Made by a program: the position numbers and the translations under genes. This document shows positions 1 to 56,068 of a DNA stretch of 64,000 nucleotides, piece after piece (positions within the stretch are counted from its first letter, which is position 1; every line of letters begins with the position of its first letter). The notes under the pieces are model-generated. The model saw only the letters and a program-made list of their open reading frames with translations. It was not told the DNA's origin and ran no database searches. The stretch spans positions 92,236 through 156,235 of the IMG/VR virus record IMGVR_UViG_3300043410_000565; one strand, 5' to 3'. Source of the DNA: a virus. Taxonomy: Duplodnaviria; Heunggongvirae; Uroviricota; Caudoviricetes.

Positions 1-698
1 CTAACATCAGAGGTTGTAACGGTTGGTCTTGCGGTAACGCTGATGCTCTATGTTTCCGTGGGTGTTCTGAACCTACAATGTTATGCTGGTGCGTGAGCGC
101 TTCTTGTAACGGATGTATGTGCGCCCAAGGTGGTATGGGTGGTTCAGCATTCTGTTCTACTACACCATCAATGTTCTGCTGCTTCGGTGGTAACGGTTTC
201 TGTACAACTAAAACCCTAAATGAAAACTGTGGCGTTGTTTGTAACTTCGGTACTGCTAGACCACATATTGCATGCGCTTATGGTGGCGATGTTAACTGCT
301 GTGGACAATTCAACTGTAAGAGTTTCTTCGGTTGCTACCCTAACTGCGTATGCCAATTCCAGCAACACATTTATGTCCCTCCAGGATTAATTGCCGACGG
401 TGGCGCTTGGGTTACATTTAACCACGAAGATACTGGATCATGGGAAACATGGACAGGTTCTGGTTTAGGTGGTTTCTTTACTGCCCTTGATGGTGCTTCT
501 AAGAACCCAACTGCTGGCCACCCATATTCAGCTTGCTGGACTGGTAACAGAGCTTGCGGTTGCTACGAAGCAATGGGATGTATTGGTTTTATTCCAACTG
601 GTATTGGTGGCGTTGGTACTAATGCTTGTCCAGATCACAGAACTCATGGTTATCGTGGTGGTCAAGGTGCTGTTCGTATTAAATTTATTGCGGGATAA
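1..698 (+). CDS. Cysteine/glycine-rich protein, 5'-truncated by the window edge (frame open from nt 3). It is a paralog of 702..1679.
   Basis: The open frame continues upstream of the window. About 13% Cys with repeated CxxC, CC and CAYGGDVN motifs. The C-terminal motif GGQGAVRIKFIAG is shared with the next gene. Confidence 0.6.
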   Translation, partial: NIRGCNGWSCGNADALCFRGCSEPTMLCWCVSASCNGCMCAQGGMGGSAFCSTTPSMFCCFGGNGFCTTKTLNENCGVVCNFGTARPHIACAYGGDVNCCGQFNCKSFFGCYPNCVCQFQQHIYVPPGLIADGGAWVTFNHEDTGSWETWTGSGLGGFFTALDGASKNPTAGHPYSACWTGNRACGCYEAMGCIGFIPTGIGGVGTNACPDHRTHGYRGGQGAVRIKFIAG

Positions 699-701
699 AA
701 C

Positions 702-1679
702 ATGGCGATTTCATTAAAATCAGCTTTACGAGATAGACATCCACAGGATTCTAGAATCGAAGAAAACTTAGAAACAGGTACAATTTACATGTACACTGGT
801 GGTTCATCTAGCGCCAACTTATGGAGTGGCTTCTGCTGGAGAGCTCCTGCGAACGGTACAGCTGTAATCGAAGCATGGGGTGCTGGTGGTCCAGGATCCC
901 GTATGTGCTGCTGCGGCTTCGGTCTTCCAGGAAACTCTGGAGCCTATGTAAAGAAAACTATTAGCGTAACAACTGGTTGTTACGTTTGTGGTACAACTGG
1001 TAACCCACCTTGTTCATCTGCCTTATGTTTCCAAGGTTGCGGCGATTCAACTGGTCTTTGCTGGTTCGGTAATTCTGGAGCTTCTGGTTGTATCTGTGCT
1101 GAAGGTGGTAAAGGTAGTGTATCTATCTGTTCTACTGGTAACTCAATGTACTGTTGCTTTATTGCTGCAGGTTTCTGTGGCAACAGAAAGAACCTATCAG
1201 ACTATTGTGGTATCTTATGTAACTACTGCTCTGGTATGTGGATCGGTTGCGCCTATGGCGGCGATGTAAATAAAAACAGTTTATTCAGCTGCGTTGAAAC
1301 ACGTCAATGTTTGGGTAACTGTCAATGTTACTTCATTACTCACGTGCCTGTTCCAGCTGGTTTATTCACAACAGATGGCAGTTGGGTAATTTATGAGGCT
1401 GACTCTGATGGTGGTGATGCACCAGGTCACTGGTCTGGTAACCAATACCCATCGTTTATTTCTGCTATGAGTTCTCTATCTAGAAACCCTAAGCGTGGTT
1501 CTCATAAATATTCTTGCTGGCGTTCTGATAAGGTCTGCGGATGTTATGAAATGGTTGGTTGCTCTCCATTGCTACCTATTGGTGTTGGTGGTCTACCACC
1601 ACAGCCGTGCGGTGACGTGCGTGACCAGGGATTCCGTGGCGGATGGGGTGCTGTTCGTATCAAATTTATTGCAAGTTAA
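702..1679 (+). CDS. Cysteine/glycine-rich protein, a tandem paralog of the preceding gene and possibly virion or fiber associated.
   Basis: 325 aa with more than 10% Cys. It shares a roughly 150-aa C-terminal domain with the upstream gene (CAYGGDVN ... CGCYE ... GAVRIKFIAS). Starts on an ATG 3 nt after the upstream stop. Confidence 0.65.
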   Translation: MAISLKSALRDRHPQDSRIEENLETGTIYMYTGGSSSANLWSGFCWRAPANGTAVIEAWGAGGPGSRMCCCGFGLPGNSGAYVKKTISVTTGCYVCGTTGNPPCSSALCFQGCGDSTGLCWFGNSGASGCICAEGGKGSVSICSTGNSMYCCFIAAGFCGNRKNLSDYCGILCNYCSGMWIGCAYGGDVNKNSLFSCVETRQCLGNCQCYFITHVPVPAGLFTTDGSWVIYEADSDGGDAPGHWSGNQYPSFISAMSSLSRNPKRGSHKYSCWRSDKVCGCYEMVGCSPLLPIGVGGLPPQPCGDVRDQGFRGGWGAVRIKFIAS

Positions 1680-2402: not shown

Positions 2403-3350
2403 TTGGAAATTACAAAAAGACCTAAAGCATTTTTTATGAATGGTGGCGCTGGCAGACTATTATGCTCTATCCCAGCCTTTGAAAAGTATGAACAGGAATC
2501 TGGTGATAAAGACTTTATCATTGTGTGCGAAGGTGGCACAGATGTATTTAAAGGTCACCCAACCCTTGATGCCCGTACCTATGACATTTGGCACAAAGGT
2601 TTATTCCAAGATAAGTTAAAACACATGGACATCATGTCCCCTGAACCATATAGAGTTTGGGAATACTACAATCAAAAGTGTAACTTATCCCAAGCATTTG
2701 ATATTGAAATCAACAAAAAAGGTGTTAGAGATTTACCTAAACCTACACTTCGTTTGTCAAAAGAAGAGCTTCTTACTGCTCGCGAGTTGATTGCCAATAT
2801 CAAGAAACAAATCAAAAAAGAAAAGGTTATCGTGTTCCAACCATTCGGTCGTGGAATCACGCAGAAGGATGGTTCATTCGTTGACCCTTCTAACCGCAGT
2901 TTTGAGTTTAAAGATGTAAAAGCTATTATTAAGAAGTTACAACAAAAAGACTTTGGTGTAATTATGATGGCTGAGTTTGGTATTGACCTTAAAGGTGAAA
3001 ACCTAAAGGATGACGTTGCAATGCCAGAAATCCCAAGCATTAGAGTTTGGGCTGCTGTTATTAAATACGCAGATTATTTCTTAGGTTGCGACAGTCTTGG
3101 TCAACACTTAGCATATGCTGTTGGTAAGAAAGCAACTGTTGTTACTGGTCCAACAGACCCTATAAATATCACGTATCCTAACTGTAAGGATTTTGATATT
3201 ATCGACATGGGTGAACTTGATCGCGAATATGAACCGATTCGTATCACTCAAGATGAACGTCTAATGCGTAAGCATGAGTTGATCATGACTATGACCGATG
3301 ATATTGTAAATATTGTTATTAACTCTGTTATGGGAAAGAAAACTAAATGA
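2403..3350 (+). CDS. Glycosyltransferase family 9 (ADP-heptose:LPS heptosyltransferase-like). The start is uncertain: TTG 2403 behind GGAG, or ATG 2436.
   Basis: N-terminal GGAGRLLCSIPAF, QPFGRG, and a C-terminal DSLGQHLAYAVGKKATVVTGPTDP nucleotide-sugar binding motif, all typical of GT9 WaaC/WaaF-like enzymes. Confidence 0.6.
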   Translation: MEITKRPKAFFMNGGAGRLLCSIPAFEKYEQESGDKDFIIVCEGGTDVFKGHPTLDARTYDIWHKGLFQDKLKHMDIMSPEPYRVWEYYNQKCNLSQAFDIEINKKGVRDLPKPTLRLSKEELLTARELIANIKKQIKKEKVIVFQPFGRGITQKDGSFVDPSNRSFEFKDVKAIIKKLQQKDFGVIMMAEFGIDLKGENLKDDVAMPEIPSIRVWAAVIKYADYFLGCDSLGQHLAYAVGKKATVVTGPTDPINITYPNCKDFDIIDMGELDREYEPIRITQDERLMRKHELIMTMTDDIVNIVINSVMGKKTK

Positions 3351-5203
3351 GTGAAGTAAAAACTGGATTACCCTTGAAGACTGGTTATATTGCGGCAATT
3401 GCCCGTGGTCATAACGCAGGTGTTTGTTTGCTTAAAGATGGCAAGGTAGTTTTCTCTATTGAAGAAGAACGTTTGTCTCGCCGCAAATATGATGGTGGAC
3501 CATACGCATCAATGGTTAAGATTTTGGAATATACTGACAAGATCGACTACTTGGTAATTGCCCACACCCAATCCCTAAACGAATCTGCAGGTCGTGTTGA
3601 CTTCTCAGGTGATGACGTTTATACTGGTCTTGCTAGAAAGTTAGGTCTTATTGACCGTAACGTGTTTGGACCACACCCTCAAGTTGTTGACTTGAGTTTC
3701 ATGCACCATAAGTTACACGCTGCTTGTGCATTCTACCGTTCTGGTTGGGAAGACGCTGTTGCTCTTATCGTAGACGGTGCTGGTACTTTTATTGGCATGA
3801 ACGTAAACAACAACCCGATTACTGTTTGGGAAGTTGAGTCTATCGTAGACTGCGCATATCCTTCTAACTTTACAACTCTGTACAAACACTACGGTACTCG
3901 TGAGCCAGTCCCAGGTGCTTTGACTAGATTAGATTCAGCTATGTTTGGTGAACATGGTTCTACGCACGAAGCGTTGATTACTGATCGCGCTGGTATCGTT
4001 AAAGTGTATGAAGCTGTAACTGAGTATTGCGGTTGGTCTAGTATTGAGGCTGGTAAGACTATGGGGCTATTCCCATATGGCGTTGAGAACCCAGCAATTC
4101 CAAAGTTGTTTGAGACTAACAGTATTGCTCCACTATCAAACCGTAACTTGATTGTTCCAACATACCCTAACGGTGCTCGAGTAAACGGTGAATTGTTTGA
4201 GTTCTTGAAGACTGACGATTCTTGCGTTGTTGAAGAATGTGATGATTGTTCTTGCGGACCAAAGGAAGACGTAACTCTCCTACAAAACCGCAGAGATCTA
4301 GCATACGCTTGTCAAACTCAAACCCAGGAACAAGTTGTTGCTTTGATTAGAAAAGCTGCAGAAATGTCTGGTAAGAAGCGTGTCGTTATTAGCGGTGGAT
4401 ATGGTTTAAACTGCGTTGCTAATTACCACTACCTAGAAGCATTGAAAAATGATGGTATCGAGATTTATTGTGAACCAGTTTCTAATGATGCAGGTACTGC
4501 TCTTGGCGCAGCATTAATGTTCCACCGTGGTATTACACACGACATGGAAGTTGAACAACGTGCTGATACTTTATATCTTGGACCAAAGTATGATTATAGC
4601 GAAGCTGATATTAAAGCAATCGCTGACAAATATGAAGCTGAAGTTCTTGATGCCACTCACGCTGATATCGTTGAATTGTTGATTAAGAAAAACATCGTTG
4701 CTCAATTCCAAGGTCGTTCAGAAAATGGTCCACGAGCTTTGGGTAACCGTTCGTTCTTGTTTGATCCACGATTTGAAGATGGTAAAGACTTCGTGAATAG
4801 TGTTAAGCACCGCGAATACTTCCGCCCATTCGCTGGTTCTATTCTTGAAGAACACGCTCACGAGTGGTTCGATCTTCGTGGTATGAAGTCATCGCCAACT
4901 ATGATGTATGCTGTAAACTGTCAGCCAGGGATCGAAGAAAAGATTCCTTCTATCATTCACGTTGATGGTACTTGCCGTATTCAAACTGTTACTCCAGAGC
5001 AGAACAAGCACTACTATGACTTGATCAAAGAGTTCCATAATAAGACTGGAACACCTATCTTGTTCAACACCAGTTTTAACTTAGGTGGCGACCCTCTAGT
5101 GGAAACCCTAGAAGATGCAGTTGCTACTTTAGCTAAGAGTGAAGTTGAATATCTCTACCTGCCAGAATACAGCAAATTAATCAAAGTTTCTAACTACGAA
5201 TAA
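3347..5203 (+). CDS. Carbamoyltransferase (NodU/CmcH family)
   Basis: 618 aa. The N-terminal GHNAGVCLLKDGKVVFSIEEERLSRRK and HHKLHAACAFYRSGWEDAVALIVDGAGT motifs are typical of NodU/CmcH O-carbamoyltransferases. ATGA overlap with the upstream gene. Confidence 0.75.
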   Translation: MSEVKTGLPLKTGYIAAIARGHNAGVCLLKDGKVVFSIEEERLSRRKYDGGPYASMVKILEYTDKIDYLVIAHTQSLNESAGRVDFSGDDVYTGLARKLGLIDRNVFGPHPQVVDLSFMHHKLHAACAFYRSGWEDAVALIVDGAGTFIGMNVNNNPITVWEVESIVDCAYPSNFTTLYKHYGTREPVPGALTRLDSAMFGEHGSTHEALITDRAGIVKVYEAVTEYCGWSSIEAGKTMGLFPYGVENPAIPKLFETNSIAPLSNRNLIVPTYPNGARVNGELFEFLKTDDSCVVEECDDCSCGPKEDVTLLQNRRDLAYACQTQTQEQVVALIRKAAEMSGKKRVVISGGYGLNCVANYHYLEALKNDGIEIYCEPVSNDAGTALGAALMFHRGITHDMEVEQRADTLYLGPKYDYSEADIKAIADKYEAEVLDATHADIVELLIKKNIVAQFQGRSENGPRALGNRSFLFDPRFEDGKDFVNSVKHREYFRPFAGSILEEHAHEWFDLRGMKSSPTMMYAVNCQPGIEEKIPSIIHVDGTCRIQTVTPEQNKHYYDLIKEFHNKTGTPILFNTSFNLGGDPLVETLEDAVATLAKSEVEYLYLPEYSKLIKVSNYE

Positions 5204-5204
5204 T

Positions 5205-5570
5205 ATGCGTCTTGAAGGTAAGCAAGATAGAGGTTGGGGATACGAAGACATCTGGGTTACTAATGACAAATATTGCGGTAAAATGCTGCACTTTACTGTC
5301 GGTAAGAAACTCAGTATGCACTTCCATCGGGAAAAGGAAGAAACTTGGTTCGTTATAAACGGCAAGTTTCTTGTCCGATATATCACCACCCAAGACGGTG
5401 AACTCCATGAAATGGTATTAGAGCCAGGAGATGTTTGGCATAGCCCAGCTCTATTACCACACCAAGTTTATTGTATGGAAGCTGGGGTTATTTGCGAAGT
5501 TTCTACCGCAGACTCGGAAGAAGATAATTTCATAGTAATGCCAGGAGACGTGCAACAAAGTTCAATGTAG
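5205..5570 (+). CDS. Cupin-fold protein
   Basis: Cupin motifs G(x)5HxH(x)3E(x)6G (SMHFHREKEETWFVINGKF) and PGDVWHSP. Confidence 0.6.
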   Translation: MRLEGKQDRGWGYEDIWVTNDKYCGKMLHFTVGKKLSMHFHREKEETWFVINGKFLVRYITTQDGELHEMVLEPGDVWHSPALLPHQVYCMEAGVICEVSTADSEEDNFIVMPGDVQQSSM

Positions 5571-5578
5571 TATAAATA
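5571..5578 (+). promoter_or_regulatory. T4-type late promoter TATAAATA upstream of the neck gene
   Basis: Exact TATAAATA about 30 nt upstream of the 5609 start codon. Confidence 0.5.
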
Positions 5579-5608: not shown

Positions 5609-6574
5609 ATGGCTGTTGCGTCAAGAGAACAACTAAAACAATATGCACTCCGTGCCCTTGGTGCGCCAGTGTTAGAAATTAACGTCGCAGACGAGCAATT
5701 AGAAGATCGTCTAGACGAAGCGTTAGATTACTGGAACCTATACCACTACGAAGGTGTAGAACAGATGTATTTGAAGCACCGTATTCGTGCTTCCACTCTA
5801 AACCTTCAATCTAATAACGGTACAGATTTCGTTATTGCCGAGAATATTACAGGTGCCACTTCTGGCGCAACTGCACAAGTTTGCCGCGAAGAAGGTAGCC
5901 AGCCAATCGACGCTAAGATCTACGTTAGAAATGTAGTCGGTACATTCGTTGCTGGAGAAACAATCAACGGTTCTTCTGGTCACACTGGCACTTTAGCAGC
6001 TACAAATCCAGTTACTCTTGGCGAGTACGATTTAAAATATGTTACAACGCCAGACTATGTTTACGGTGTTACAAAGTTATTCAATATCGGTCAAGCATCG
6101 TCATCTAAAAATATCTTCGATTTACAATACCAACTTCGCTTAAACGACTTATACGACCTTACTTCTACATCTATCGTATATTACAAAACAGTGATGTCGC
6201 ACTTAGCGATGCTTGACCTTGAATTAAATGGTCACCCTCTATATCGTTTCAACCGTCTACAGAATAGATTGTACCTTGATGTAAACTGGGAAACTGATAT
6301 CATCATCGGTGACTATATTCTTGTGCAAGGATATAGAGCTTTGAACCCCGCTGACTTCACCAAAGTGTATGGTGAGCCATGGTTGAAGCACTATGTAACT
6401 GCCCTCTTCAAACGCCAATGGGCATTGAACATTAAAAAGTTCTCTGGTCTACAATTACCAGGTGGTGTAACACTCGATGGCGATAAGCTATATGCTGAAG
6501 CCACTAAAGAGATTGCTGATCTAGAAGATGAATTGAGAACAAAGTCTGCCCCGTTAGATTTCTTCTTGGGGTAA
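5609..6574 (+). CDS. 13: Neck protein gp13
   Basis: The N-terminus (LRALGAPVLEINVADEQLEDRLDEALDYWNLYH) and C-terminus (LPGGVTLDGDKLYAEA...DFFLG) align with T4 gp13. Confidence 0.85.
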   Translation: MAVASREQLKQYALRALGAPVLEINVADEQLEDRLDEALDYWNLYHYEGVEQMYLKHRIRASTLNLQSNNGTDFVIAENITGATSGATAQVCREEGSQPIDAKIYVRNVVGTFVAGETINGSSGHTGTLAATNPVTLGEYDLKYVTTPDYVYGVTKLFNIGQASSSKNIFDLQYQLRLNDLYDLTSTSIVYYKTVMSHLAMLDLELNGHPLYRFNRLQNRLYLDVNWETDIIIGDYILVQGYRALNPADFTKVYGEPWLKHYVTALFKRQWALNIKKFSGLQLPGGVTLDGDKLYAEATKEIADLEDELRTKSAPLDFFLG

Positions 6575-17830: not shown

Positions 17831-19156
17831 ATGACAACTCGTCAACAACTAATGGAAAAATGGGCACCAGTCCTTAATCACGAAGGTGCACCAAAGATCG
17901 CTGATAACTATCGTAAAGAAGTTACTGCTGTTCTTCTAGAAAACCAAGAGCGCGAAATGCGCAAGCAAGCTGAAGCGCTTTTCGAAACTGCTCCAACTAA
18001 CTCTACTGGTGGCCAAATTGGCGTAGTAGGTTCTGGTGCTGGTATCGGTGGTGTTGCTGGTTTCGACCCAGTGTTGATCAGCTTGGTTCGCCGTGCTATG
18101 CCACAATTGATCGCTTACGATATCGCTGGCGTTCAACCAATGACTCAACCAACTGGCTTGATCTTCGCAATGAAGTCTCGCTACGGTACTCCAGGTGGTG
18201 CTGAAGCTCTATTCAACGAAGCTGACTCTGACTACTCTGGTACTGGTACTCACTCTTCTACTTTAGATGGCGACGTTCTTTCTAGCCAAACTAACGGTAC
18301 TGGTATGGCTACTACTGCTGCTGAACGTCTTGGTCAAGGTGGTTCTGGCGACGGTACTTTCGGTCAAATGGCATTCTCTATCGAGAAGACTTCTGTTACT
18401 GCAAAGACTCGTGCTTTGAAGGCAGAATACTCTATCGAACTAGCACAAGACATGAAGTCTGTGCATGGTTTGGATGCTGAAGGCGAATTGTCTAACATCT
18501 TGTCTGCAGAAATCTTGACTGAAATCAACCGTGAAGTTGTGCGTACTGTGTACCGCACTGCTAAGGTTGGTGCTCAAGTTGGTACTGCTACTGCTGGTAC
18601 TTTCGACTTGGACGTTGACTCTAACGGTCGTTGGTCTGTTGAAAAGTTCAAGGGTCTATTGTTCCAAATCGAACGCGAAGCGAACGCTGTTGGTCAATTG
18701 ACACGTCGTGGTCGCGCGAACTTCATCATCACTTCTGCTGACGTTGCGTCTGCATTGGCGATGGCTGGTGTTCTTGACTACACTCCTGCTTTGAACGGCA
18801 ATAACAGCTTGAACGTAGATGACACTTCTACTACTTTCGCTGGTGTTCTAAACGGCAAGTACAAAGTTTATGTTGATCCATATGCAGCTAACATCTCTGC
18901 TAACCAATACTTCGTTTGCGGTTACAAAGGTACTTCTGCTTTCGACGCTGGCTTGTTCTACTGCCCATACGTTCCTCTACAAATGGTTCGTGCTGTTGAT
19001 CCAAACAGCTTCCAACCAAAGATTGGTTTCAAGACTCGTTACGGTCTAGTTGCTAACCCATTCGTTAACTTGGATGACGGCACTTCTGGTCAAGACAACT
19101 TGACTTCTGATGCAAACTACTACTACCGTAAAGTTAAGGTTACTAACCTAATGTAA
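17831..19156 (+). CDS. 23: Major capsid protein gp23, the short form that lacks the T4 insertion domain
   Basis: LVRRAMPQLIAYDIAGVQPMTQPTGLIFAMKSRYG and ALKAEYSIELAQDMKSVHGLDAEGELSNILSAEILTEINREVV align closely with T4 gp23. Confidence 0.92.
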   Translation: MTTRQQLMEKWAPVLNHEGAPKIADNYRKEVTAVLLENQEREMRKQAEALFETAPTNSTGGQIGVVGSGAGIGGVAGFDPVLISLVRRAMPQLIAYDIAGVQPMTQPTGLIFAMKSRYGTPGGAEALFNEADSDYSGTGTHSSTLDGDVLSSQTNGTGMATTAAERLGQGGSGDGTFGQMAFSIEKTSVTAKTRALKAEYSIELAQDMKSVHGLDAEGELSNILSAEILTEINREVVRTVYRTAKVGAQVGTATAGTFDLDVDSNGRWSVEKFKGLLFQIEREANAVGQLTRRGRANFIITSADVASALAMAGVLDYTPALNGNNSLNVDDTSTTFAGVLNGKYKVYVDPYAANISANQYFVCGYKGTSAFDAGLFYCPYVPLQMVRAVDPNSFQPKIGFKTRYGLVANPFVNLDDGTSGQDNLTSDANYYYRKVKVTNLM

Positions 19157-27988: not shown

Positions 27989-28014
27989 AGTCTGATAAAT
28001 TATGGAGAAATGTG

Positions 28015-29157
28015 ATGAGTGATGCCGTCTTTCAGCGTGAGTTTGAACTGAAACTCGATGAGATGTACCCTGATGTTAAGTCAACTGGTACAGTGAAGAA
28101 TCAAGAATTGCTTTCGGTTATGAAAGCACTTGGTACGACCAAACAACCTAAGTGGTTGATGGTCAATAAAGTCAGTCGTGGTTTGTATGCCATCCCTGGC
28201 AGTAAGTCTAATGTTGTTATGAAGGAAGAACCTGTGAGTTCATTTGAAGTTGATTACACGAACACTGATTCGTTGATTCCCAAGAAAGACCCTAACTTTG
28301 TTCCATTCGGTAATTTTACCGATCTTGAGAACATTATCAAGTCTCAAATTTTCTATCCTGCCTATATCAGTGGTCCAACTGGTAATGGTAAGTCTACGAT
28401 GGTGGAACAGATTTGTGCCAAGCACAAACGTCCCCTGATTCGTGTCAACCTGAACATGATGGTTGACGAAGAACAATTGATTGGTTCCAAAACCTTGCAA
28501 GAAGGCAACGTTGAGATCGTTGAAGGACCAGTCCTTATCGCCATGCGTTCTGGCACTACTCTGTTGCTGGACGAAATTGACGCAGGTGCTGCTAACACCC
28601 TGCTTTGCTTGCAACCTATTCTCGAGGGCAAGCCATACTACTTCAAGCTGAAGAATGAAATGATCATTCCAGCCAAGGGTTTTAACATTATCGCAACTGC
28701 CAACACCAAAGGTAAAGGTTCAGACGATGGTCGCTATATTGGTACCAACATTCTGAACGAAGCCTTCTTGGAGCGTTTCGCTGTTACGTTCAACCAAGAA
28801 TATCCTTCTGCTAAGATTGAAGGTAAGATTGTTCAAAACCTGATGACCTCGTACGAATGTCTGGATGAAACCTTTGCCGATAACTTGGTGAAGTGGGCTG
28901 ATGCCATCCGTAAGACTTTCGATGACGGTGGTGTTGATGAAACAATTACGACTCGTCGTATGACCCACATCGTTCGTGCCTTTGCGATTTTCAAGAAGCA
29001 AGACAAGGCTATCGAACTTTGTTGCAATCGTTTCGATGCTGCAACGAAAGCTGCATTCATCGACTTGTATGACAAGATTGCAAGCCCTGAGCCTGAGGTG
29101 TTGACCCCTGTTGCACCTGTGTCTCTCAACCCAGAATCGGACGAAATTCCGTTCTAA
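28015..29157 (+). CDS. CobS/MoxR-like AAA+ ATPase with an N-terminal wHTH-like extension
   Basis: Walker A GPTGNGKST, Walker B LLLDEIDA, sensor region TANTKGKG. The N-terminal 65 aa share the motif PxWLxxNKxxxGLYxxP with the 29245 gene. Confidence 0.8.
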   Translation: MSDAVFQREFELKLDEMYPDVKSTGTVKNQELLSVMKALGTTKQPKWLMVNKVSRGLYAIPGSKSNVVMKEEPVSSFEVDYTNTDSLIPKKDPNFVPFGNFTDLENIIKSQIFYPAYISGPTGNGKSTMVEQICAKHKRPLIRVNLNMMVDEEQLIGSKTLQEGNVEIVEGPVLIAMRSGTTLLLDEIDAGAANTLLCLQPILEGKPYYFKLKNEMIIPAKGFNIIATANTKGKGSDDGRYIGTNILNEAFLERFAVTFNQEYPSAKIEGKIVQNLMTSYECLDETFADNLVKWADAIRKTFDDGGVDETITTRRMTHIVRAFAIFKKQDKAIELCCNRFDAATKAAFIDLYDKIASPEPEVLTPVAPVSLNPESDEIPF

Positions 29158-29199
29158 AAATCGCTTGACTTTAATTCAAAGTTCAGGTATAATTAATGT
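29156..29199 (+). promoter_or_regulatory. Conserved early promoter P3 (AAATCGCTTGACTTTAATTCAAAGTTCAGGTATAATTAATGTAT)
   Basis: Consensus -35 TTGACT, 17-bp spacer, -10 TATAAT. Followed by a GGGG(N7)CCCC palindrome in the 5' UTR. Confidence 0.75.
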
Positions 29200-29244
29200 A
29201 TGGGGTGAAATTCCCCGTTCTTGAAAACTGATAAAGGATATATT

Positions 29245-29745
29245 ATGTTGAAGTTCTCTGCTCTTTCCCTCGCTCAAAAGAAGTGTGTTGTTGCTCTCAT
29301 CGAGCATACCCCTGCTCTTAAAAAGACTGGTCAAATTACGCTGAAGGAAGTTACATCAATCACTCAAGATCTCGCTCAAATGCGCGAGCAGGGTGCTATG
29401 AAGATTGGCTATCCTAACTGGCTGTTCAAAGCCAATAAGATCGAGAAGGGTTTGTATCAACTCCCAGTTCCTACTGCCGCAGAATTGTCTGCGTACCAGC
29501 AAGAAATGGATGCTAAGTTGAACCCTGTTAAGAAAGCCAAGGCAAAAGTTGCCAAGCTGGCTCAAGCGAAAGTTGTTAAAGCGAAGGCTGTGAAGCCTGC
29601 GAAGAAAGTTGCTGCAAAGGCAACTGAGGACGAAAGTGATATCAGTGGTTCTCGTTTGAACCGTATCATCGAGGAATCTGTTGAGTACGACCAAGACGTC
29701 GAAGACTTCAACGCTATCCTCCGTGAAAACGGCATCGAAGTCTAA
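29245..29745 (+). CDS. Histone-H1-like (Ala/Lys/Pro-rich) DNA-binding protein with an N-terminal wHTH-like module. ATG 29245 behind AAGGA is preferred.
   Basis: Central KKAKAKVAKLAQAKVVKAKAVKPAKKVAAKA tract. The N-terminal motif PNWLFKANKIEKGLYQLPVP is shared with the AAA+ gene. Confidence 0.65.
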   Translation: MLKFSALSLAQKKCVVALIEHTPALKKTGQITLKEVTSITQDLAQMREQGAMKIGYPNWLFKANKIEKGLYQLPVPTAAELSAYQQEMDAKLNPVKKAKAKVAKLAQAKVVKAKAVKPAKKVAAKATEDESDISGSRLNRIIEESVEYDQDVEDFNAILRENGIEV

Positions 29746-29751
29746 TTCACA

Positions 29752-29790
29752 ATCCGTGTAGGTATCACCATCGCCTACACGGATCATTTT
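29752..29790 (+). terminator. Stem-loop (11-bp perfect arms ATCCGTGTAGG / CCTACACGGAT, 11-nt loop) followed by a CATTTTCG tail
   Basis: Perfect inverted repeat immediately after the 29745 stop. Confidence 0.55.
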
Positions 29791-29820
29791 CGTCATGATG
29801 GTATATTATGGAGGACATTT

Positions 29821-30078
29821 ATGTCTAAACACGCTAAACTTTTGAATCACCTACAAAACGGTCACGAAGTGACTTCAAAGCAAATCACTGGCACTTTCGG
29901 TTTGAAGAATGCTGGTCGCGCAGTTCACTATCTCCGTGAACAAGGTCACTGCGTTTATGCAAACCGTGTAACTCTTTCTGATGGCACTGAAGGTACAAAG
30001 TATCGTATTGGTAAGCCATCTCGTTCTATGGTTGCTATTGCTAATGCAGTTATGGGTTCAGCTGCGTTTACTCGATAA
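29821..30078 (+). CDS. Small basic wHTH-like protein
   Basis: 85 aa with RBS GGAGG. The segment TSKQITGTFGLKNAGRAVHYLREQGH...TKYRIGKP resembles the shared N-terminal module of the two upstream genes. Confidence 0.5.
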   Translation: MSKHAKLLNHLQNGHEVTSKQITGTFGLKNAGRAVHYLREQGHCVYANRVTLSDGTEGTKYRIGKPSRSMVAIANAVMGSAAFTR

Positions 30079-30383
30079 TGAGCGAAAACCTTCCTACTGG
30101 TCGTAAGTTCGATGGCGATAAACTTCGCTACGATCTTATTCCACCTCTAGCCCAAGAGGAGATGGTGAAGGTTTTGACGTTTGGTGCTCAGAAATATGCT
30201 CCCGATAATTGGCAGCTTGTTCCTGACTCCAAGCGTCGTTACTTTGCCGCAATGCAACGTCATGTATGGGCGTGGAAAATGGGAGAACAGGTTGACCCAG
30301 AATCTGGTATCCATCACTTGGCTCATGCTATGTGTTGCTTGATGTTCTTGTATGAACATGATGTAAAATATTCAAAGGAATAA
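30078..30383 (+). CDS. Putative nucleotide pyrophosphohydrolase-like (dATP/dGTP PPHyd / DUF550-like) protein
   Basis: DKLRYDLIPP...FGAQKY...W and HLAHAMCCLMFLYE are reminiscent of this family. The call rests on motifs only. TAATG junction. Confidence 0.4.
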   Translation: MSENLPTGRKFDGDKLRYDLIPPLAQEEMVKVLTFGAQKYAPDNWQLVPDSKRRYFAAMQRHVWAWKMGEQVDPESGIHHLAHAMCCLMFLYEHDVKYSKE

Positions 30384-30385
30384 CT

Positions 30386-31318
30386 GTGAAAAAATTTATT
30401 ATGATTTTGGCTCTCTTTGCTACTTCTGCATTCGCCGAGCCTTCCTTCGATCAAATTCAATCCCTTATCGGTCAGCAAAAATACGCTGCCGCTGAACAAG
30501 GTCTTGAACAGATTATCAAGAACCATCCTAACTCAGCCAAAGCCTATTACTCAATGGCTCAAGCGCAAGCTGGTTTGGGTAACCAAGACAAAGCACGTTA
30601 TGCCTTAAACAAGGCAACTGGTTTAGATCCTGCTCTGTCTTTTGCTTCTGCGAGTCAAGTACGTTCTCTTGAAGAAGCCCTTACACCTCAAGTAAAAAAG
30701 ATCGAGGTGATTGAGGAAAGCCATTGGCTCAGAAATACATTTATCGCTTTACTTGTTGCATCTGGTCTTGCTTTGCTGTTTGCTTGGTATATCCGTCGTA
30801 ACGAAGACGAAGACAAACGTGATGGCAGCTTCAAACCTGTAACTCCAGTGAGCCCAACCCCTTCCCCTTACAAGGAAGAACCGTTTGAGCCAGTCACAGT
30901 TAAAAAGAATACAGTGTACAAGAAAGCTGAAACACCAACACCTTCTTACACCCCTTCGTATTCAACACCTGCTCCAGCTGCTCATACTACAACCGTTGTT
31001 AATAACAGCAACGATGGTCTTTTGACTGGTATGATTCTGGGCAACATGATGTCTGGTCACCACCACGATCATGAACGTATTATCGAAAAGGAAGTTATCC
31101 GTGAAGTACCTGTCAAATCTTATGAGTCGCCTGGTGTCCGCACTTCGTCGCGGGATAGTGATTCTATTAGCAGCAGTTGGGATTCTGACTCTAGCAGTTC
31201 TCGGAGTTCGTCTTCTAGCTGGAGTTCTAGTTCTAGCAGTGATTCCTCTTGGAGTAGCAGCGATAGTTCTTCTAGCAGCTGGGACTCTGGTTCTAGTTCT
31301 AGCGACTCGTCTTGGTAA
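30386..31318 (+). CDS. Secreted or membrane-anchored protein with a TPR-like N-domain, a transmembrane segment and a Ser/Asp/Trp low-complexity tail. GTG start.
   Basis: Sec signal MKKFIMILALFATSAFA|EP, hydrophobic helix FIALLVASGLALLFAWYI, and a C-terminal (S)nW repeat region. RBS AAGGAA. Confidence 0.6.
   Translation: MKKFIMILALFATSAFAEPSFDQIQSLIGQQKYAAAEQGLEQIIKNHPNSAKAYYSMAQAQAGLGNQDKARYALNKATGLDPALSFASASQVRSLEEALTPQVKKIEVIEESHWLRNTFIALLVASGLALLFAWYIRRNEDEDKRDGSFKPVTPVSPTPSPYKEEPFEPVTVKKNTVYKKAETPTPSYTPSYSTPAPAAHTTTVVNNSNDGLLTGMILGNMMSGHHHDHERIIEKEVIREVPVKSYESPGVRTSSRDSDSISSSWDSDSSSSRSSSSSWSSSSSSDSSWSSSDSSSSSWDSGSSSSDSSW
31136..31318 (+). repeat. Low-complexity coding repeat (Ser-rich with periodic Trp/Asp) at the 3' end of the 30386 gene
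   Basis: Reiterated tctagc/agcagt codon units encoding SSSSWSSSSSSDSSW. Confidence 0.5.
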
Positions 31319-31342
31319 ATTTTTGAAAAAGGAAAATATATA

Positions 31343-32686
31343 ATGGAAATCGCAATTCTCCCTACCGTCCTAGCAGTACTGGCTATCGCTACTGTTCTTC
31401 TCTCTGCAATCTGGGTTGTTAACCTTCGTCGTGTTGTTTCAACCAATGAAGTTCACATTATCCAAAGCGCATCTAAAACCGTTTCGTTTGGTAAAGACCA
31501 AGAAGCTGGCAATACTTACTATGAGTGGCCAAGCTGGATTCCTGTAATTGGTATCAACGTTATCAAGTTGCCTGTGTCTGTGTTCAGCCTTCGCTTGAAA
31601 GACTATGAAGCATATGACAACGGTCGCTTGCCTTTCGTACTTGACCTTGAAGCGTTCTTCCGTATTGAAAACTCTAACGTTGCCGCTCAACGTGTTGCTG
31701 GTTATCAAGAACTGAATGCTCAGCTGTTGTCTATCCTTCAAGGTGCTGCTCGTACCATCCTTGCTTCTAAGACTATCGAAGAAATCATGCAAGGTCGTTC
31801 TGAGTTCGGTGATGCCTTTACCAAAGAAGTTAATGAGCAGTTGAAGGCTTGGGGTGTTACCACTGTTAAGAATATCGAGTTGATGGATATTCGCGACAGC
31901 CGTGAAAGCCAAGTTATCCAGAACATCATGGATAAGAAGAAGTCTGAAATTGAGAAAGAATCTCGTATCGTAGTTGCCGCAAACAAGAAGGCTGCTCAGA
32001 ATGCTGAAATTGACGCAGCACGAGAAATTGAACTTAACAAGCAGGTTGCCGCTGAACAAGTTGGTATCCGTACAGCTGAAAAAGAAAAAGCCGTTGGTAT
32101 CGCTAACGAAAAATCTCAGCAAGATATTAAGGCTCAACAAAAGGTTACAACTGAAAAGGCTATGGAAGTTGCCCGTGTTCAAGAAGTTAAGGCAGCTGAA
32201 ATTGCCAAGGACGTGAACGTGGTTAAAGCTGAAGAACAAAAGCAGACTGACGTTATCTCTGCTGAAGGTCAGAAGCAACGTACTGTGTTGGTTGCTGAAG
32301 GTAACTTGGAAGCTGAAAAGCGTAAGGCTGAAGCTGTGCTGGTGAACGGTCAAGCTAAAGCTGAATCCGAGAAGCTGTTGCAACTTGCCCCTGTTGAAGC
32401 TCAGATTGTTCTGGCTAAAGAAATTGGCGAGAACCAAAGCTACCAACAATACCTTATCACTATCCGTCAAGTTGAAGCTAACCAAGCTATCGGTGTTGAA
32501 CAAGCCCGTGCTTTGGATAAGGCTGATATCAAGGTTATCGCTAACAGCGGTACAGTGACTGGTGGTATTAGTTCCCTTGGTGAATTGTTCACCTCTCAAG
32601 GTGGCAGTAATGTAGGTGCTGCTCTTGAAGGACTTGCTCAAAGCGAAGTCGGCAAGCAATTGCTGGATAAGTTTGTAAGCAAATAA
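31343..32686 (+). CDS. SPFH/band-7 (flotillin/YqiK-like) membrane protein
   Basis: N-terminal TM helix and an SPFH core (FSLRLKDYEAYDNGRLPFVLDLEAFFRIEN...ILASKTIEEIMQGR). A long EA/K-rich coiled coil follows (flotillin repeats) with a C-terminal oligomerisation tail. Confidence 0.75.
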   Translation: MEIAILPTVLAVLAIATVLLSAIWVVNLRRVVSTNEVHIIQSASKTVSFGKDQEAGNTYYEWPSWIPVIGINVIKLPVSVFSLRLKDYEAYDNGRLPFVLDLEAFFRIENSNVAAQRVAGYQELNAQLLSILQGAARTILASKTIEEIMQGRSEFGDAFTKEVNEQLKAWGVTTVKNIELMDIRDSRESQVIQNIMDKKKSEIEKESRIVVAANKKAAQNAEIDAAREIELNKQVAAEQVGIRTAEKEKAVGIANEKSQQDIKAQQKVTTEKAMEVARVQEVKAAEIAKDVNVVKAEEQKQTDVISAEGQKQRTVLVAEGNLEAEKRKAEAVLVNGQAKAESEKLLQLAPVEAQIVLAKEIGENQSYQQYLITIRQVEANQAIGVEQARALDKADIKVIANSGTVTGGISSLGELFTSQGGSNVGAALEGLAQSEVGKQLLDKFVSK

Positions 32687-50595: not shown

Positions 50596-50637
50596 GGGTA
50601 TTTACTTTTATTCAAGAATATAGTATAATATATCTAT
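50593..50637 (+). promoter_or_regulatory. Conserved early promoter P5 (GGTATTTACTTTTATTCAAGAATATAGTATAATATATCTAT)
   Basis: -35 TTTACT, 17-bp spacer, -10 TATAAT. The spacer TTTAATTCAGAAATAG of P4 appears here as TTTTATTCAAGAATATAG. Confidence 0.6.
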
Positions 50638-50656
50638 AACTTGAAAAGGATTTATT

Positions 50657-53994: not shown

Positions 53995-54019
53995 GGATTA
54001 GGCTTTCTAGGAGGTCATT

Positions 54020-54721: not shown

Positions 54722-54735
54722 TTAAGGATTTATTA

Positions 54736-56058: not shown

Positions 56059-56068
56059 ATATACCAAT

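Follow-up and report, generated by a model that had tools for sequence, protein, structure and literature searches.

The gene cassette at 2,403 to 5,570 of the window (the whole 64,000-nucleotide stretch of DNA analyzed here, from a T4-like aquatic phage), which lies among the tail-fibre and neck genes, derives by deletion from the known cyanomyovirus heptose ('LPS') cluster. Its first two genes, encoding a glycosyltransferase (GT) and a carbamoyltransferase (CT), probably form a two-enzyme module that makes a carbamoylated sugar on some acceptor, a reading to which we assign a rough probability of 0.75. The third gene, encoding a cupin, is an orphaned remnant of a nucleotide-heptose unit (nucleotidyltransferase, PfkB kinase, cupin and SDR epimerase). 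The features of the locus are as follows:

up to 698, + strand: C-terminal part of a Cys-rich paralogue, in a frame open to the window edge
702-1679, + strand: Cys-rich paralogue (ORF)
1697-2323, + strand: 208-aa conserved hypothetical protein (hyp208; ORF), between the Cys-rich genes and the terminator
2327-2350, + strand: intrinsic terminator, AAAGCCCTC-TTCG-GAGGGCTTT followed by a T-run, closing the upstream Cys-rich/hyp208 genes
2359-2366, + strand: TATATAAT box, sigma-70 -10-like, 36 nt 5' of the GT start, read from the sequence
2393-2396, + strand: GGAG ribosome-binding site of GT, read from the sequence and conserved 5' of GT in related loci
2403-3350, + strand: GT9-like GT-B glycosyltransferase (GT), 315 aa
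3347-5203, + strand: NodU/CmcH/TobZ-type O-carbamoyltransferase (CT), 618 aa
5205-5570, + strand: small metal-binding cupin (HxH...E...H), 121 aa
5571-5578, + strand: T4-type late-promoter motif TATAAATA, abutting the cupin stop, 30 nt 5' of the gp13 ATG

The original prediction, which is partly supported as a whole, described three co-directional, overlapping genes between the Cys-rich proteins and the neck genes. All three ORFs are present on the + strand, with the neck genes gp13, gp14 and gp15 immediately downstream, but the overlap is limited to the GT stop and the CT start (ATGA), CT and the cupin being separated by a single base (TAA-T-ATG), and hyp208 intervenes after the Cys-rich genes. 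The GT start is the TTG at 2403, aligned with the ATG start of a 96%-identical relative; gene callers picked an alternative start, ATG 2436, on the Logan contigs of the same phage.

Judging by its sequence, the assignment of CT as a NodU/CmcH-type carbamoyltransferase, as originally proposed, is secure and unambiguous. The protein contains both Pfam domains with scores far above the threshold (Carbam_trans_C, 1.1e-57; Carbam_trans_N, 2.3e-21) and matches PHROG 1601 (3e-164), and its relatives in the PDB are 7xb6 (1.5e-55) and GdmN, NovN and TobZ (approximately 1e-42 to 1e-45). The motifs GHN, HHxxH, DGAG, SxDGGT, GPRALGNRS and NTSFN are invariant; the Kae1-like HxxxH/D/D metal motifs and the YrdC-like GPRALGNRS and NTSFN are shared with the NodU/TobZ group (NodU, NolO, CmcH, TobZ, NovN and GdmN), to any characterised member of which CT shows at most about 30% identity, and a short Cys-rich insertion, SCVVEECDDCSC, is peculiar to the CT clade. 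Most of the characterised O-carbamoyltransferases of this group act on sugar hydroxyls.

The proposal that GT is a GT9 heptosyltransferase-like enzyme holds at the fold and profile level, with caveats: Pfam Glyco_transf_9 (PF01075) gave 16.2 bits (E 0.0067), below the cut-off of 22 bits, and the catalytic Asp is absent. The assignment is therefore based on profile-profile comparison and fold search rather than on the Pfam score. The comparison of the GT family with E. coli WaaC/F/Q/U using hhalign yielded a probability of 97.2% (E 3.3e-11, 257 columns; 0.1% for a GT4 control), and the best Foldseek matches of the AF2 model (pLDDT 81, pTM 0.83) in the PDB are all GT9-type (3tov, WaaC, WaaF) or TibC (8e-11 to 7e-7). 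The matching PHROG (8954, 4e-139) is of unknown function; some relatives with 69% identity have a precomputed PF01075 match and are named heptosyltransferases by JGI. With WaaC/WaaF/WaaQ (CAZy GT9, PF01075), GT shares the GT-B fold, a full-length profile-profile match, the D-S/T-G-x-x-H-x-A donor-site motif and the GPT-P turn; it retains the donor-site motif GCDSLGQH, and its D230 and H235 align with D261 and H266 of WaaC. Unlike WaaC, GT has Arg165 instead of Lys192, an N-terminal (acceptor) domain shorter by about 60 residues and, across the family, Arg18 in the position of the catalytic Asp13.

This last replacement makes the chemistry of GT uncertain. In each of the phage members examined, among them the homologues from Vibrio and Aeromonas phages and a second paralogue, GG(A/L/I)GR takes the place of the GT9 G-D, and TagF and POFUT1 are among the lower-ranked fold matches, as could be expected if GT were not a conventional inverting glycosyltransferase: it might bind a nucleotide sugar and present it to CT, or it might employ another mechanism, either phosphotransfer of the TagF kind or a retaining or SN1-like reaction of the kind seen in POFUT1. 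We consider this improbable, given that the donor-site residues are conserved as they are in active GT9 enzymes, that either of the other invariant acidic residues, E81 or D161, could serve as the base, and that very strong purifying selection acts along the whole protein.

The GT-CT pair is the invariant core of the locus, with selection as strict as that on the terminase: dN/dS relative to the closest relative is 0.028 for GT and 0.058 for CT, compared to 0.028 for the terminase, which points to functional importance of both genes; the strong purifying selection on GT argues for some real function, without fixing which. GT and CT are adjacent in all 91 evaluable related loci, namely 78 of the 80 from IMG/VR, the two exceptions being contig ends, and 13 of 13 derived from MAGs, down to 36% identity. 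This adjacency and the stop/start overlap point to coupling of GT and CT. The pair has so far been seen on phage and phage-like contigs only; when 185,579 species genomes were scanned for the motif, the GT family was detected only on 13 MAG contigs.

Beyond the gene identities, fold, motifs, synteny, deletions and purifying selection established here, we propose a tentative scheme for the pair. GT would move a nucleotide-activated sugar, most likely of the ADP-heptose type, onto a conserved macromolecular acceptor, and the translationally coupled CT would then O-carbamoylate a hydroxyl of the transferred sugar, using carbamoyl phosphate and ATP via carbamoyl-AMP. Transfer and carbamoylation are suggested by the intact domains and motifs of CT and by the GT9 fold and donor-site motif of GT.

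The closest known counterpart is the cyanomyovirus LPS/heptose cluster (T4-GC 302-308) of P-SSM2, S-SSM7 and S-SSM6a, found also in S-CAM1, S-CAM3, P-SSM5 and Sf-FS3. Its orthologues of GT (46-57% at the amino acid level), CT (47-62%) and the cupin (38-42%) come in the same order and at the same position, 3' of tail-fibre genes, small fibre-domain proteins and Cys-rich-like hypothetical proteins. The cyanomyovirus GT homologues, annotated only as hypothetical proteins, carry a low-complexity C-terminal tail of 60-100 aa that the window GT lacks; literature searches found no experiments on genes of this cluster. The cyanomyoviruses have additional genes, lost from the window, for a nucleotidyltransferase, a kinase, GmhA and an epimerase, located between CT and the cupin and beyond the latter. 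In close relatives, the gene order is GT-CT-nucleotidyltransferase-kinase-cupin-epimerase, with the cupin of the relatives always located between PfkB and the epimerase, and comparison with these loci shows that both cupin junctions in the window are gene-precise deletions, by which the nucleotidyltransferase, kinase and epimerase genes were lost. The same reduced arrangement was detected on independent contigs from two sequencing runs.

The third gene product was correctly recognized as a cupin in the original prediction (Cupin_2, 29 bits against a cut-off of 27.2; Cupin_1 also matched; PHROG 7851) and is predicted to bind metal. It shares the single-domain HxH...E...H form with sugar-acting metallo-cupins, such as D-lyxose/mannose isomerases, the C-terminal domain of type II phosphomannose isomerase and the cupin domain of CapF/WbjC, and the fold matches of its AF2 model (pLDDT 86) include 7nzp, 2y0o, 3kmh and CapF at 4e-9 to 6e-8; in the relatives, the cupin has an SDR enzyme as its partner, which is also the case in CapF. 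Weak family matches were obtained with MannoseP_isomer, GMP_PMI and WbuC. Since quercetinase and oxalate decarboxylase are matched just as well, the fold is compatible with more than one function; the label 'cysteine dioxygenase' used in RefSeq and PHROG is unsupported. The window cupin departs from the family at 8 of the 56 columns with a conservation of 90% or more, compared with 0-2 in 28 other homologues, and has lost its GAGGAG ribosome-binding site. It is a fast-diverging gene rather than a partner of the GT-CT pair.

These losses could be taken to mean that the whole cassette is decaying 'stuffer' DNA, non-functional here after the donor genes were deleted, an idea raised for LPS clusters by Sullivan et al. 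(PMC3037559). We give this very little credence: GT and CT are intact and their low dN/dS values pertain to the branch that includes the deletions, the reduced arrangement recurs on independent contigs, and most of the related loci lack adjacent sugar genes while GT-CT is still intact. Decay limited to the cupin is plausible.

A heptose-type sugar is the probable, moderately supported donor of GT, since genes for CTP_transf_like, PfkB, (GmhA), cupin and epimerase proteins adjoin the pair in close relatives and in all seven isolate species that carry it, in line with the heptosyltransferase names given by JGI. The only well-known glycan that joins GT9 heptosyl transfer with heptose carbamoylation is the 7-O-carbamoyl-heptose of Pseudomonas aeruginosa, Hep(Cm)-Hep-Kdo (PMC3147165); the likeness is in the enzyme pairing, the bacterial sugar being attached to lipid A-Kdo. 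What counts against the sugar-transfer scheme is that no donor-synthesis genes are present within 10 kb of the pair in the window or in approximately 70 of the 80 related loci. Given that the donor-making genes are cleanly deleted, the donor would be supplied by the host or by genes that lie beyond the window.

For the acceptor, the original prediction named host LPS and a virion component as possibilities. We favour glycosylation of fibre proteins over remodelling of the host envelope, and tentatively propose that the acceptor is a virion protein encoded in the upstream tail-fibre module, that is, a small fibre-domain protein, a Cys-rich paralogue or a fibre. The order p107-p109-CysRich (two or three copies)-hyp208-GT-CT is observed in about 60 of the 80 related loci; p107 and p109 match tail-fibre protein domains. 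GT-CT is located almost always downstream of tail-fibre-domain and Cys-rich proteins and, in every lineage, within the tail-fibre or structural region, with giant fibre-like genes also following in other lineages. Weak homologues of the genes in 1-2323, whose products are candidate acceptors or co-functioning fibre-module proteins, occupy the same position in S-CAM1 and P-SSM2, and Cys-rich homologues are detectable only in isolates that have the pair. Giant tail proteins are encoded beside the distant homologues of GT from Vibrio and Aeromonas phages of 79 kb, and the 13 MAG contigs with the GT family all show the GT-CT adjacency of the phage loci. A virion acceptor is also suggested by the shortened N-terminal domain of GT, together with the loss of the Asp used on LPS acceptors, and by TibC, a protein heptosyltransferase that is structurally about as close to GT as WaaC is (4rap and 4rb4, 3e-8 to 7e-7). 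TibC and AAH heptosylate the adhesins TibA and AIDA-I in the cytoplasm, and a modification of fibre proteins by GT would likewise occur there, ahead of assembly. GT is smaller (315 aa against about 400 aa), and its five cysteines are scattered, with no CxxC and thus no cluster able to form the iron-finger, reportedly described in TibC by Yao et al. in 2014. Glycosylation of mycobacteriophage virions, said to have been described by Freeman et al. in 2023 (cited in PMC12801897), is comparable to the favoured model, as are the glycosylated fibrils of giant viruses: both kinds of virus apply glycosyltransferases of their own, and giant viruses also their own sugar-nucleotide pathways, to their virion proteins. 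Both cases differ from the pair in GT families, sugars and hosts and in lacking carbamoylation.

The arrangement of regulatory elements counts against a virion acceptor. The strong terminator noted originally is borne out: the 2327-2350 hairpin (9-bp stem, UUCG loop, U-run; also listed on the - strand by the terminator scan) folds at -14.8 kcal/mol (z -3.3; 1 of 200 shuffles folds equally well), and terminator-like hairpins just 5' of the GT ribosome-binding site occur in at least 29 of 79 related loci, compared to 9 of 79 shuffled controls. Upstream of GT, TATAAT is present within 110 nt in 40 of 79 related loci (shuffle mean 13.8, maximum 23) and TATATAAT in 25 (mean 1.7, maximum 6), mostly 28-43 nt before the start, whereas the T4 late motif TATAAATA is found in 3 of 79, showing no enrichment. 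The TATATAAT box, a candidate non-late promoter of the cassette, has no -35 element and is absent from the promoter consensus scan. The TATAAATA at 5571-5578 marks the downstream boundary: two relatives (L004 and L114) have it, with the same spacer before gp13, at the end of the epimerase gene. The cassette thus looks like a separate transcription unit of a non-late type, divided by the terminator from the upstream structural genes and with a sigma-70-type -10 box, whereas its structural neighbours have the late motif; moreover, Cys-rich/hyp208 genes are missing from some loci that retain GT-CT. The terminator and the -10 box give a moron-like layout, to which an early or host-directed role is suited no less well. 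It is also a known pattern that enzymes modifying a receptor are encoded beside receptor-binding proteins, e.g., gtr next to the P22 tailspike, so the position of the cassette is compatible with a host target, too.

Remodelling of the host envelope, whereby the pair would, in the infected cell, put a carbamoylated heptose-type sugar on the LPS or a different outer-membrane glycan of the host, thereby blocking superinfection or preventing re-adsorption of progeny to infected cells and debris, is the main alternative, albeit a doubtful one. It is the standard reading of cyanophage 'LPS gene clusters', T4-GC 304-308 being classed as LPS genes (PMC3037559; PMC12801897), and fits the LPS core heptosyltransferases WaaC and WaaF as the closest characterised relatives of GT, the carbamoylated heptose of the P. 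aeruginosa inner core, the insulation of the cassette by the terminator, and the moron/AMG category of CT in PHROGs. In S-CAM1 and P-SSM2, TATAAATA is present at the flanking fibre genes but not in the GT-to-epimerase block, and in S-SM2 and S-T4 the cupin/heptose genes are part of AMG islands close to hli and pstS that also encode other glycosyltransferases. However, the GT family was detected on phage-like contigs only and is old, with no recent acquisition from hosts, phages that infect different hosts share a conserved GT acceptor domain despite the high variability of host surface glycans, the Asp with which WaaC deprotonates the LPS acceptor has given way to Arg and part of the N-terminal domain is missing, and the pair is constantly found amid tail-fibre genes. 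Furthermore, Snyder et al. reportedly found in 2009 that the LPS of marine Synechococcus lacks heptose and most of the Kdo, which speaks against a host-envelope target.

The same window encodes, at 47-54 kb, a TET/JBP-type DNA hypermodification cluster (Tet_JBP, amino acid:DNA transferase and P-loop kinase3). This cluster raises a third possibility, that GT and/or CT decorate 5-hydroxymethyl-pyrimidines of phage DNA, along the lines of the MetaGPA 5hmC carbamoyltransferase (eLife 2021, PMC8670742) and the T4 glucosyltransferases. The MetaGPA enzyme, a phage-encoded member of the same superfamily as CT, has been demonstrated to make 5-carbamoyloxymethylcytosine from 5hmC, and a promoter layout of non-late type would be appropriate for an enzyme that modifies DNA. 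Nevertheless, DNA modification, tested here as the function of the pair, is very unlikely. CT shows 24% identity to the 5hmC enzyme (E 1e-14) and is far closer to sugar and natural-product enzymes (1.5e-55 to 1e-42); the MetaGPA enzyme accompanies thymidylate-synthase-like hydroxymethylases whereas CT accompanies a glycosyltransferase and tail-fibre genes, and carbamoyltransferases flanked by glycosyltransferases in MetaGPA are on unmodified contigs (PMC8670742). No DNA glycosyltransferase is among the fold matches of GT, the cassette lies 44 kb from the TET/JBP-type cluster, the TET protein is encoded by none of the GT-CT isolates, and the genera listed with matches to the amino acid:DNA transferase include none of these isolates.

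Thus, the GT-CT pair, for which we favour the carbamoylation of a sugar on a virion protein, is already present in known cyanophages, where it is uncharacterised, and the copy in the window is a trimmed version of that cluster.

The window comes from a T4-like myovirus, and the genes and signals in and around the predicted glycan-modification cassette are arranged as follows:

to 698, C-terminal part of a Cys-rich protein, its frame open to the window edge
702-1679, Cys-rich paralog, 325 aa
1697-2323, hypothetical gene, 208 aa (hyp208)
2327-2350, hairpin after the stop codon of hyp208 (9-bp stem, UUCG loop, U-run)
2359-2366, -10-like box TATATAAT
2403-3350, + strand, GT9-like glycosyltransferase (GT); TTG start at 2403, aligned with the ATG of a 96%-identical relative, with GGAG upstream at 2393-2396
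3347-5203, + strand, NodU/TobZ-type O-carbamoyltransferase (CT)
5205-5570, + strand, cupin
5571-5578, + strand, T4 late-promoter motif TATAAATA, directly after the cupin stop codon and 30 nt before gp13
5609-6574, gp13, followed by gp14, gp15, the large terminase subunit and the tail sheath

The original observation holds with minor corrections, and its interpretation in part. The strong terminator that the original prediction placed upstream of the cassette is borne out by the hairpin (dG -14.8 kcal/mol, z -3.3). The description of the three genes as overlapping applies to GT and CT, where the stop and start codons overlap (ATGA), but not to CT and the cupin gene, which are one base apart.

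Orthologs of GT, CT and the cupin are found in the same order in P-SSM2, P-SSM5, S-SSM7/S-SSM6a, S-CAM1, S-CAM3 and Sf-FS3; in these phages, heptose-pathway genes are interspersed and tail-fiber genes lie on both sides. Cyanophage records have contained the GT and CT genes since P-SSM2 was sequenced, where they appear as "hypothetical protein + carbamoyltransferase" in "LPS clusters". The set belongs to the LPS clusters that Sullivan et al. treated in 2010 (PMC3037559), raising the idea of stuffer DNA, and no experimental study of it was found in the literature searched. A megablast search of 50,697 phage records with the cassette returned no match, so the window does not belong to a sequenced phage. 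Sequenced cyanophages already contain this gene set, of which the cassette is a new and trimmed member. We rejected the cyanophage label for the phage itself because its major capsid protein (17831-19156) is about 63-64% identical to those of cyanomyoviruses (S-CREM1, S-H38, P-TIM40) and of the Methylophilales phage Melnitz alike. No photosynthesis genes were detected among the scanned window ORFs, and the host may be other than a cyanobacterium.

Comparison with two close relatives, L004 (~84% DNA identity) and L114, in which the order is GT-CT-NT-PfkB-cupin-epimerase-gp13 (NT, nucleotidyltransferase), reveals two deletions in the window. In the first, NT and PfkB are gone exactly from the CT stop codon to the cupin ATG, so that the GAGGAG ribosome-binding site of the cupin gene is lost as well; in the second, the epimerase gene has been removed from codon 2 onward, up to a point just short of the late-promoter motif. 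Two Logan contigs, which come from separate sequencing runs, have the reduced arrangement as well, and tblastn searches with proteins from three phages found no heptose-pathway homologs in the 64-kb window. By this comparison, the cassette is a deletion derivative of the known cyanophage cluster. The orphaned cupin (dN 0.23 against L004) deviates at 8 of the 56 columns that are at least 90% conserved, compared with 0-2 in 28 other homologs, and has this pattern in common only with its 88%-identical relative, which suggests relaxed or shifted constraint on its sequence.

The cupin assignment itself was upheld (Cupin_2, 29 bits against a cut-off of 27.2): the 121-aa protein is an HxH...E...H metallo-cupin in which H39, H41, E46 and H86 are invariant across 30 homologs. 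Its modeled beta-barrel (pLDDT 86) matches a mixture of D-lyxose/mannose isomerases, the CapF cupin, oxalate decarboxylase and quercetinase, and the fold search does not discriminate among isomerase, epimerase and dioxygenase classes. PHROGs and RefSeq label this cupin as a cysteine dioxygenase (CDO). CDO has a 3-His iron site without the cupin Glu; with E46 present and invariant and no CDO family among the Pfam and NCBIfam matches, we rejected this label, a bacterial putative CDO being one of many equal fold matches. In the relatives, the cupin gene is always one of four that form a unit with a CTP_transf_like nucleotidyltransferase, a PfkB kinase and an SDR epimerase, located right after GT-CT or elsewhere in the genome, and in isolates such as S-SM2 and S-T4 it lies beside GmhA-like genes and other glycosyltransferases. 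From this gene context, the cupin is assigned to a nucleotide-heptose-type pathway. Three related loci (L096, 4915-7127; L097; L098) carry the unit away from GT-CT, among NAMPT, AhpC/peroxiredoxin and CMD genes, and the sugar-nucleotide unit is therefore a mobile block within the genomes of these phages.

For GT, the GT9 assignment did not pass the proposed Pfam check, and it is profile-profile and fold comparison that sustains the relationship. The match to PF01075 is below threshold (16.2 bits against a cut-off of 22, E 0.0067; residues 205-245 only) and those to the NCBIfam heptosyltransferase models reach 15-19 bits (cut-offs 170-467); a precomputed PF01075 match is present in some GT relatives with 67-70% identity. 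A single-sequence phmmer search of the PDB gave only noise, and an HMM of the 77-member GT family retrieved WaaF and WaaC only at E 0.01-0.05, so that more sensitive profile-profile and fold searches were needed. With hhalign, the 77-member family aligned with E. coli WaaC/WaaF/WaaQ/WaaU over 257 columns (probability 97.2%, E 3.3e-11), compared with a probability of 0.1% for a GT4 control. The AF2 model of GT (pLDDT 81, pTM 0.83) shows the GT-B fold with two Rossmann domains, and in a Foldseek search of the PDB ranks 1-31 were almost all occupied by 3tov, WaaC, WaaF and TibC (E 8e-11 to 7e-7), the next enzyme class being TagF, from 2e-5, and other GT-B classes at least 100-fold worse. The best named matches among viral models are phage proteins annotated as 'RfaF' and 'Aah/TibC'.

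The donor site of the heptosyltransferases is preserved in GT: D230 and H235, invariant in the 77 family members, align with WaaC D261 and H266 (the D-S/T-G-x-x-H site), and the phosphate-binding Lys192 of WaaC corresponds to the nearly invariant Arg165, a conservative change. Asp13 in the G-D motif of WaaC is the catalytic base. By hhalign and MAFFT alike, G12-D13 of WaaC aligns with G17-R18 of GT, where the Arg belongs to a GG(A/L/I)GR motif; it is at least 90% conserved in the family and is also found in the second paralog present at some loci and in homologs from Vibrio and Aeromonas phages. In addition, the N-terminal acceptor domain lacks about 60 residues compared with WaaC. We refer to GT as GT9-like and not as a regular GT9 heptosyltransferase because the catalytic Asp is replaced and the Pfam threshold is missed while the donor site and the fold are kept. 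GT also differs from TibC/AAH (BAHT) in the absence of a cysteine cluster: its five Cys residues (C21, C42, C93, C229, C261) are scattered, form no CxxC and are not invariant in the broad family alignment. In TibC/AAH, which reportedly assemble as dodecamers, such a cluster is reported to form an iron-finger (Yao et al. 2014). We define here a GT9-like clade with an altered catalytic motif, found only on phage-like contigs. The orthologs from S-SSM7 (L001, 6767-8014), S-CAM1 (L002, 6844-7983) and P-SSM2 (L003, 6889-8001) carry a low-complexity, Pro/Gln/Ser/Lys-rich C-terminal tail of 60-100 aa that is absent from the window protein and its close relatives. More distant homologs (24-27% identity) that keep GG-L-GR are encoded, without a carbamoyltransferase, in ~79-kb Aeromonas and Vibrio phages, e.g., Aeromonas phage HJ05 (L010, 5995-6918) and Vibrio phage K479 (L011, 5887-6738); in K479, one neighboring gene encodes a protein longer than 1,700 aa and the other, only 8 nt away, a 1,643-aa 'tail protein'.

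The carbamoyltransferase assignment is secure, and here the Pfam check came out as anticipated: CT matches Carbam_trans_C with 194.7 bits (cut-off 27) and Carbam_trans_N with 77 bits (cut-off 24; family models PF02543 and PF16861). It further matches the PHROG 'Nol-like carbamoyltransferase' family at 3e-164, and its relatives in the PDB are the unnamed carbamoyltransferase 7xb6 (1.5e-55), GdmN, NovN and TobZ. The motifs H120-H121-x-x-H124, D143-G-A-G, S379-x-D381-G-G-T, G461-PRALGNRS and N574-TSFN are invariant in seven phage orthologs and align with those of an experimentally active 5hmC enzyme. Going by the TobZ literature, we take these residues to form a Kae1-like metal site (HxxxH, D, D) and a YrdC-like carbamoyl-adenylate site. 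Around residues 299-312 (window 4230-4270), CT carries a short acidic, Cys-rich insertion, SCVVEECDDCSC, which it has in common with L004 and which is absent from other orthologs; this may be a small metal-binding knuckle.

Given that a phage NodU-type enzyme carbamoylates 5hmC (PMC8670742) and that the window encodes a TET/JBP cluster, we considered whether GT and/or CT might modify phage DNA. The genes of this DNA-hypermodification-type cluster (47145-57855, + strand), identified with Pfam, are:

47145-48518, + strand, Tet_JBP 2OG-Fe dioxygenase (4e-23)
48518-49201, + strand, GATase_6
51955-52977, + strand, amino acid:DNA transferase ADDT (1e-21)
53389-53994, + strand, P-loop nucleotide kinase3 (5e-9)
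56069-57244, + strand, DUF6267 (2e-97)
57244-57855, + strand, CTP_transf_like protein

The cluster suggests hypermodified thymidine or cytosine in the DNA of this phage; no thymidylate-synthase-like protein was detected among the Pfam-scanned window ORFs (at least about 180 aa), and the closest TET homologs come from the T4-like phages Cr30, DLP_6 and C48C1, not from marine cyanomyovirus isolates. A role of the cassette in this modification is nevertheless very unlikely. CT is only 24% identical to the 5hmC enzyme (E 1e-14) and much nearer to enzymes that act on sugars and natural products; the TET protein is absent from all isolates that carry GT-CT, and these isolates are absent from the genera listed for amino acid:DNA transferase matches; and 44 kb separate the cassette from the cluster. 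Unlike the 5hmC carbamoyltransferase of the MetaGPA clade, which co-occurs with a thymidylate-synthase-like hydroxymethylase, CT has a glycosyltransferase and fiber genes as its neighbors. Elsewhere in the window (28012-32686), genes between the recombination genes and the clamp/clamp-loader genes encode an AAA_5 ATPase (28012-29157), a TPR-repeat protein (30386-31318) and an SPFH/Band 7 protein (31343-32686), and an antisense ORF of 406 aa (31439-32659) overlaps the SPFH gene.

The association of GT and CT is invariant in all evaluable loci. Of the 80 IMG/VR loci (56-96% GT identity), 78 have CT directly after GT and the other two are contig ends; all 13 further MAG loci (36-61% identity) have GT-CT as well. 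When 185,579 bacterial and archaeal species, each represented by a single genome, were scanned with a GT family motif derived from 15 sequences, the 13 MAG contigs were the only matches; since no isolate genome matched and all 13 contigs carry the phage-type GT-CT, the family appears to be phage-restricted. It is large, with thousands of metagenomic homologs: about 3,000 at E <= 0.001 in a protein collection clustered at 90% and 419 representatives at the same threshold in a library clustered at 50%. The dN/dS values against L004 are 0.028 for GT, 0.058 for CT, 0.028 for the terminase and 0.086 for gp13. Only about 6 of the 80 loci have heptose-pathway genes within a distance of 10 kb. The order p107-p109-Cys-rich (two to three copies)-hyp208-GT-CT is seen in about 60 of the 80, where p107 and p109 are small upstream proteins that match tail-fiber and tailspike protein domains; loci without Cys-rich genes mostly keep p107 and p109, and in other lineages giant fiber-like genes are also found downstream of GT-CT. 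These comparisons show that the GT-CT pair, and not the sugar pathway, is the conserved and strongly selected functional unit and is tied to the tail-fiber module, the sugar-nucleotide genes being accessory and losable or relocatable.

Several features of this neighborhood recur. About 17 of the 80 IMG/VR loci, together with one locus from a MAG, have a second GT paralog after CT, in the order GT-CT-GT (L034, L040-L042, L046, L048-L050, L054, L055, L060, L066, L074, L078, L079, L081, L090, L102), and each of the seven evaluable loci with a duplicated hyp208 has two copies of GT as well. The Cys-rich genes (window 1-1679; L004, 6332-9271) encode three tandem paralogs, each about 325 aa long and with a very high content of Cys and Gly, that end with GG(W/Q)GAVRIKFIA(S/G) and match no Pfam family, only PHROG 4205 (dN/dS 0.106); they are kept upstream of GT-CT in most related loci. 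In tblastn searches against phages, hyp208 yielded nothing and the Cys-rich protein only a short match in S-CAM1. Just left of the window, on the minus strand of the same phage's DNA (L008, 1-1724), two radical SAM genes are divergent from the fiber/Cys-rich array; the scanned one has a SPASM domain, and the other, cut by the locus end, a faint precomputed SPASM match. These neighbors raise the possibility of thioether or other cross-links in the Cys-rich paralogs.

Transcription signals were compared in 79 loci that are mutually related, so that the counts are not independent. Directly ahead of the ribosome-binding site of GT, a hairpin resembling a terminator was found in at least 29 (9 of 79 in shuffled controls; a lower bound, because the scan misses hairpins visible by eye, e.g., in L016 and L018), a TATAAT box within 110 nt upstream of GT in 40 (shuffle mean 13.8) and the TATATAAT box upstream of GT in 25 (shuffle mean 1.7), both boxes mostly 28-43 nt from the GT start, and TATAAATA is not enriched there (3 loci). 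In S-CAM1 and P-SSM2, late motifs are present at the flanking fiber genes and none within the GT-to-epimerase block. A moron, as an independently transcribed insert in a late operon, would have its own promoter and terminator among the structural genes; in the window, the terminator lies upstream of the cassette and not downstream, and the box enriched upstream of GT is present. The only late motif inside the cassette block (3161) falls in the GT gene, at a distance of 186 nt from the CT start, and L004 has it too. Taken from these motifs, the cassette looks like a separate, non-late transcription unit. A canonical sigma-70 promoter was rejected, as there is no -35 element and the consensus scan did not return it. 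On transcript timing in P-SSM2, the one study consulted used only qPCR of three marker genes. Across the window, TATAAATA has six matches, all on the + strand (3161, 5571, 16731, 19236, 34846 and 35563), at least three of them just upstream of gene starts (gp13 at 5609 and ORFs at 16773 and 19249); six against 3.0 expected is not significant as a count alone.

As a GT-B enzyme with a GT9 donor pocket, GT would transfer a sugar to an acceptor, and the coupled CT would O-carbamoylate the transferred sugar. We consider this chemistry quite probable. The Asp-to-Arg replacement leaves room for unconventional chemistry of GT, which we regard as improbable. A heptose-type donor appears reasonably likely, because close relatives and all seven isolate species with the pair also have genes of the heptose pathway next to it, and because GT9-type transfer combined with carbamoylation has a precedent in the Hep(Cm) of the Pseudomonas core (PMC3147165).

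The original prediction named two candidate targets, host LPS and a virion component. Remodeling of the host envelope would fit the insulation of the cassette and its transcription layout, which is not of the late type; the closest characterized relatives of GT act on LPS, and receptor-modifying genes can adjoin receptor-binding genes. We hold this to be somewhat less likely and tentatively favor a protein of the virion fiber module as the acceptor. The reasons are that fiber genes constantly surround the pair, that the family occurs only on phage-like contigs, that its acceptor domain is kept in phages infecting different hosts, that the catalytic Asp of LPS-type enzymes is lost, that the GT fold is as near to TibC as to WaaC, and that the distant homologs in other phages adjoin tail genes. 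The small fiber-domain proteins, the Cys-rich paralogs or the fibers would be the candidate acceptors of the carbamoyl-heptose. As the most far-reaching reading, with a probability of roughly 0.35, we propose that GT-CT serves T4-like phages of marine and fresh waters as a virion-glycosylation system of their own, absent from cellular genomes, that places O-carbamoylated heptose on proteins of the tail-fiber module through Arg-for-Asp catalysis unlike that of every characterized GT9 enzyme.

If this proposal is correct, carbamoyl-heptose would for the first time be linked to a protein, and myoviruses of the cyanophage/pelagiphage type would have their first known system for virion glycosylation. 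The window represents a natural deletion variant in which GT-CT has been kept despite the loss of the adjacent donor-synthesis genes, and the choice between virion and host as the target can be tested in the cultured phages P-SSM2, S-SSM7 and S-CAM1. Should the product decorate the host, the pair would constitute a widespread mechanism of superinfection exclusion; should it decorate the virion, it would bear on the host recognition, particle stability and stickiness of very abundant ocean viruses.
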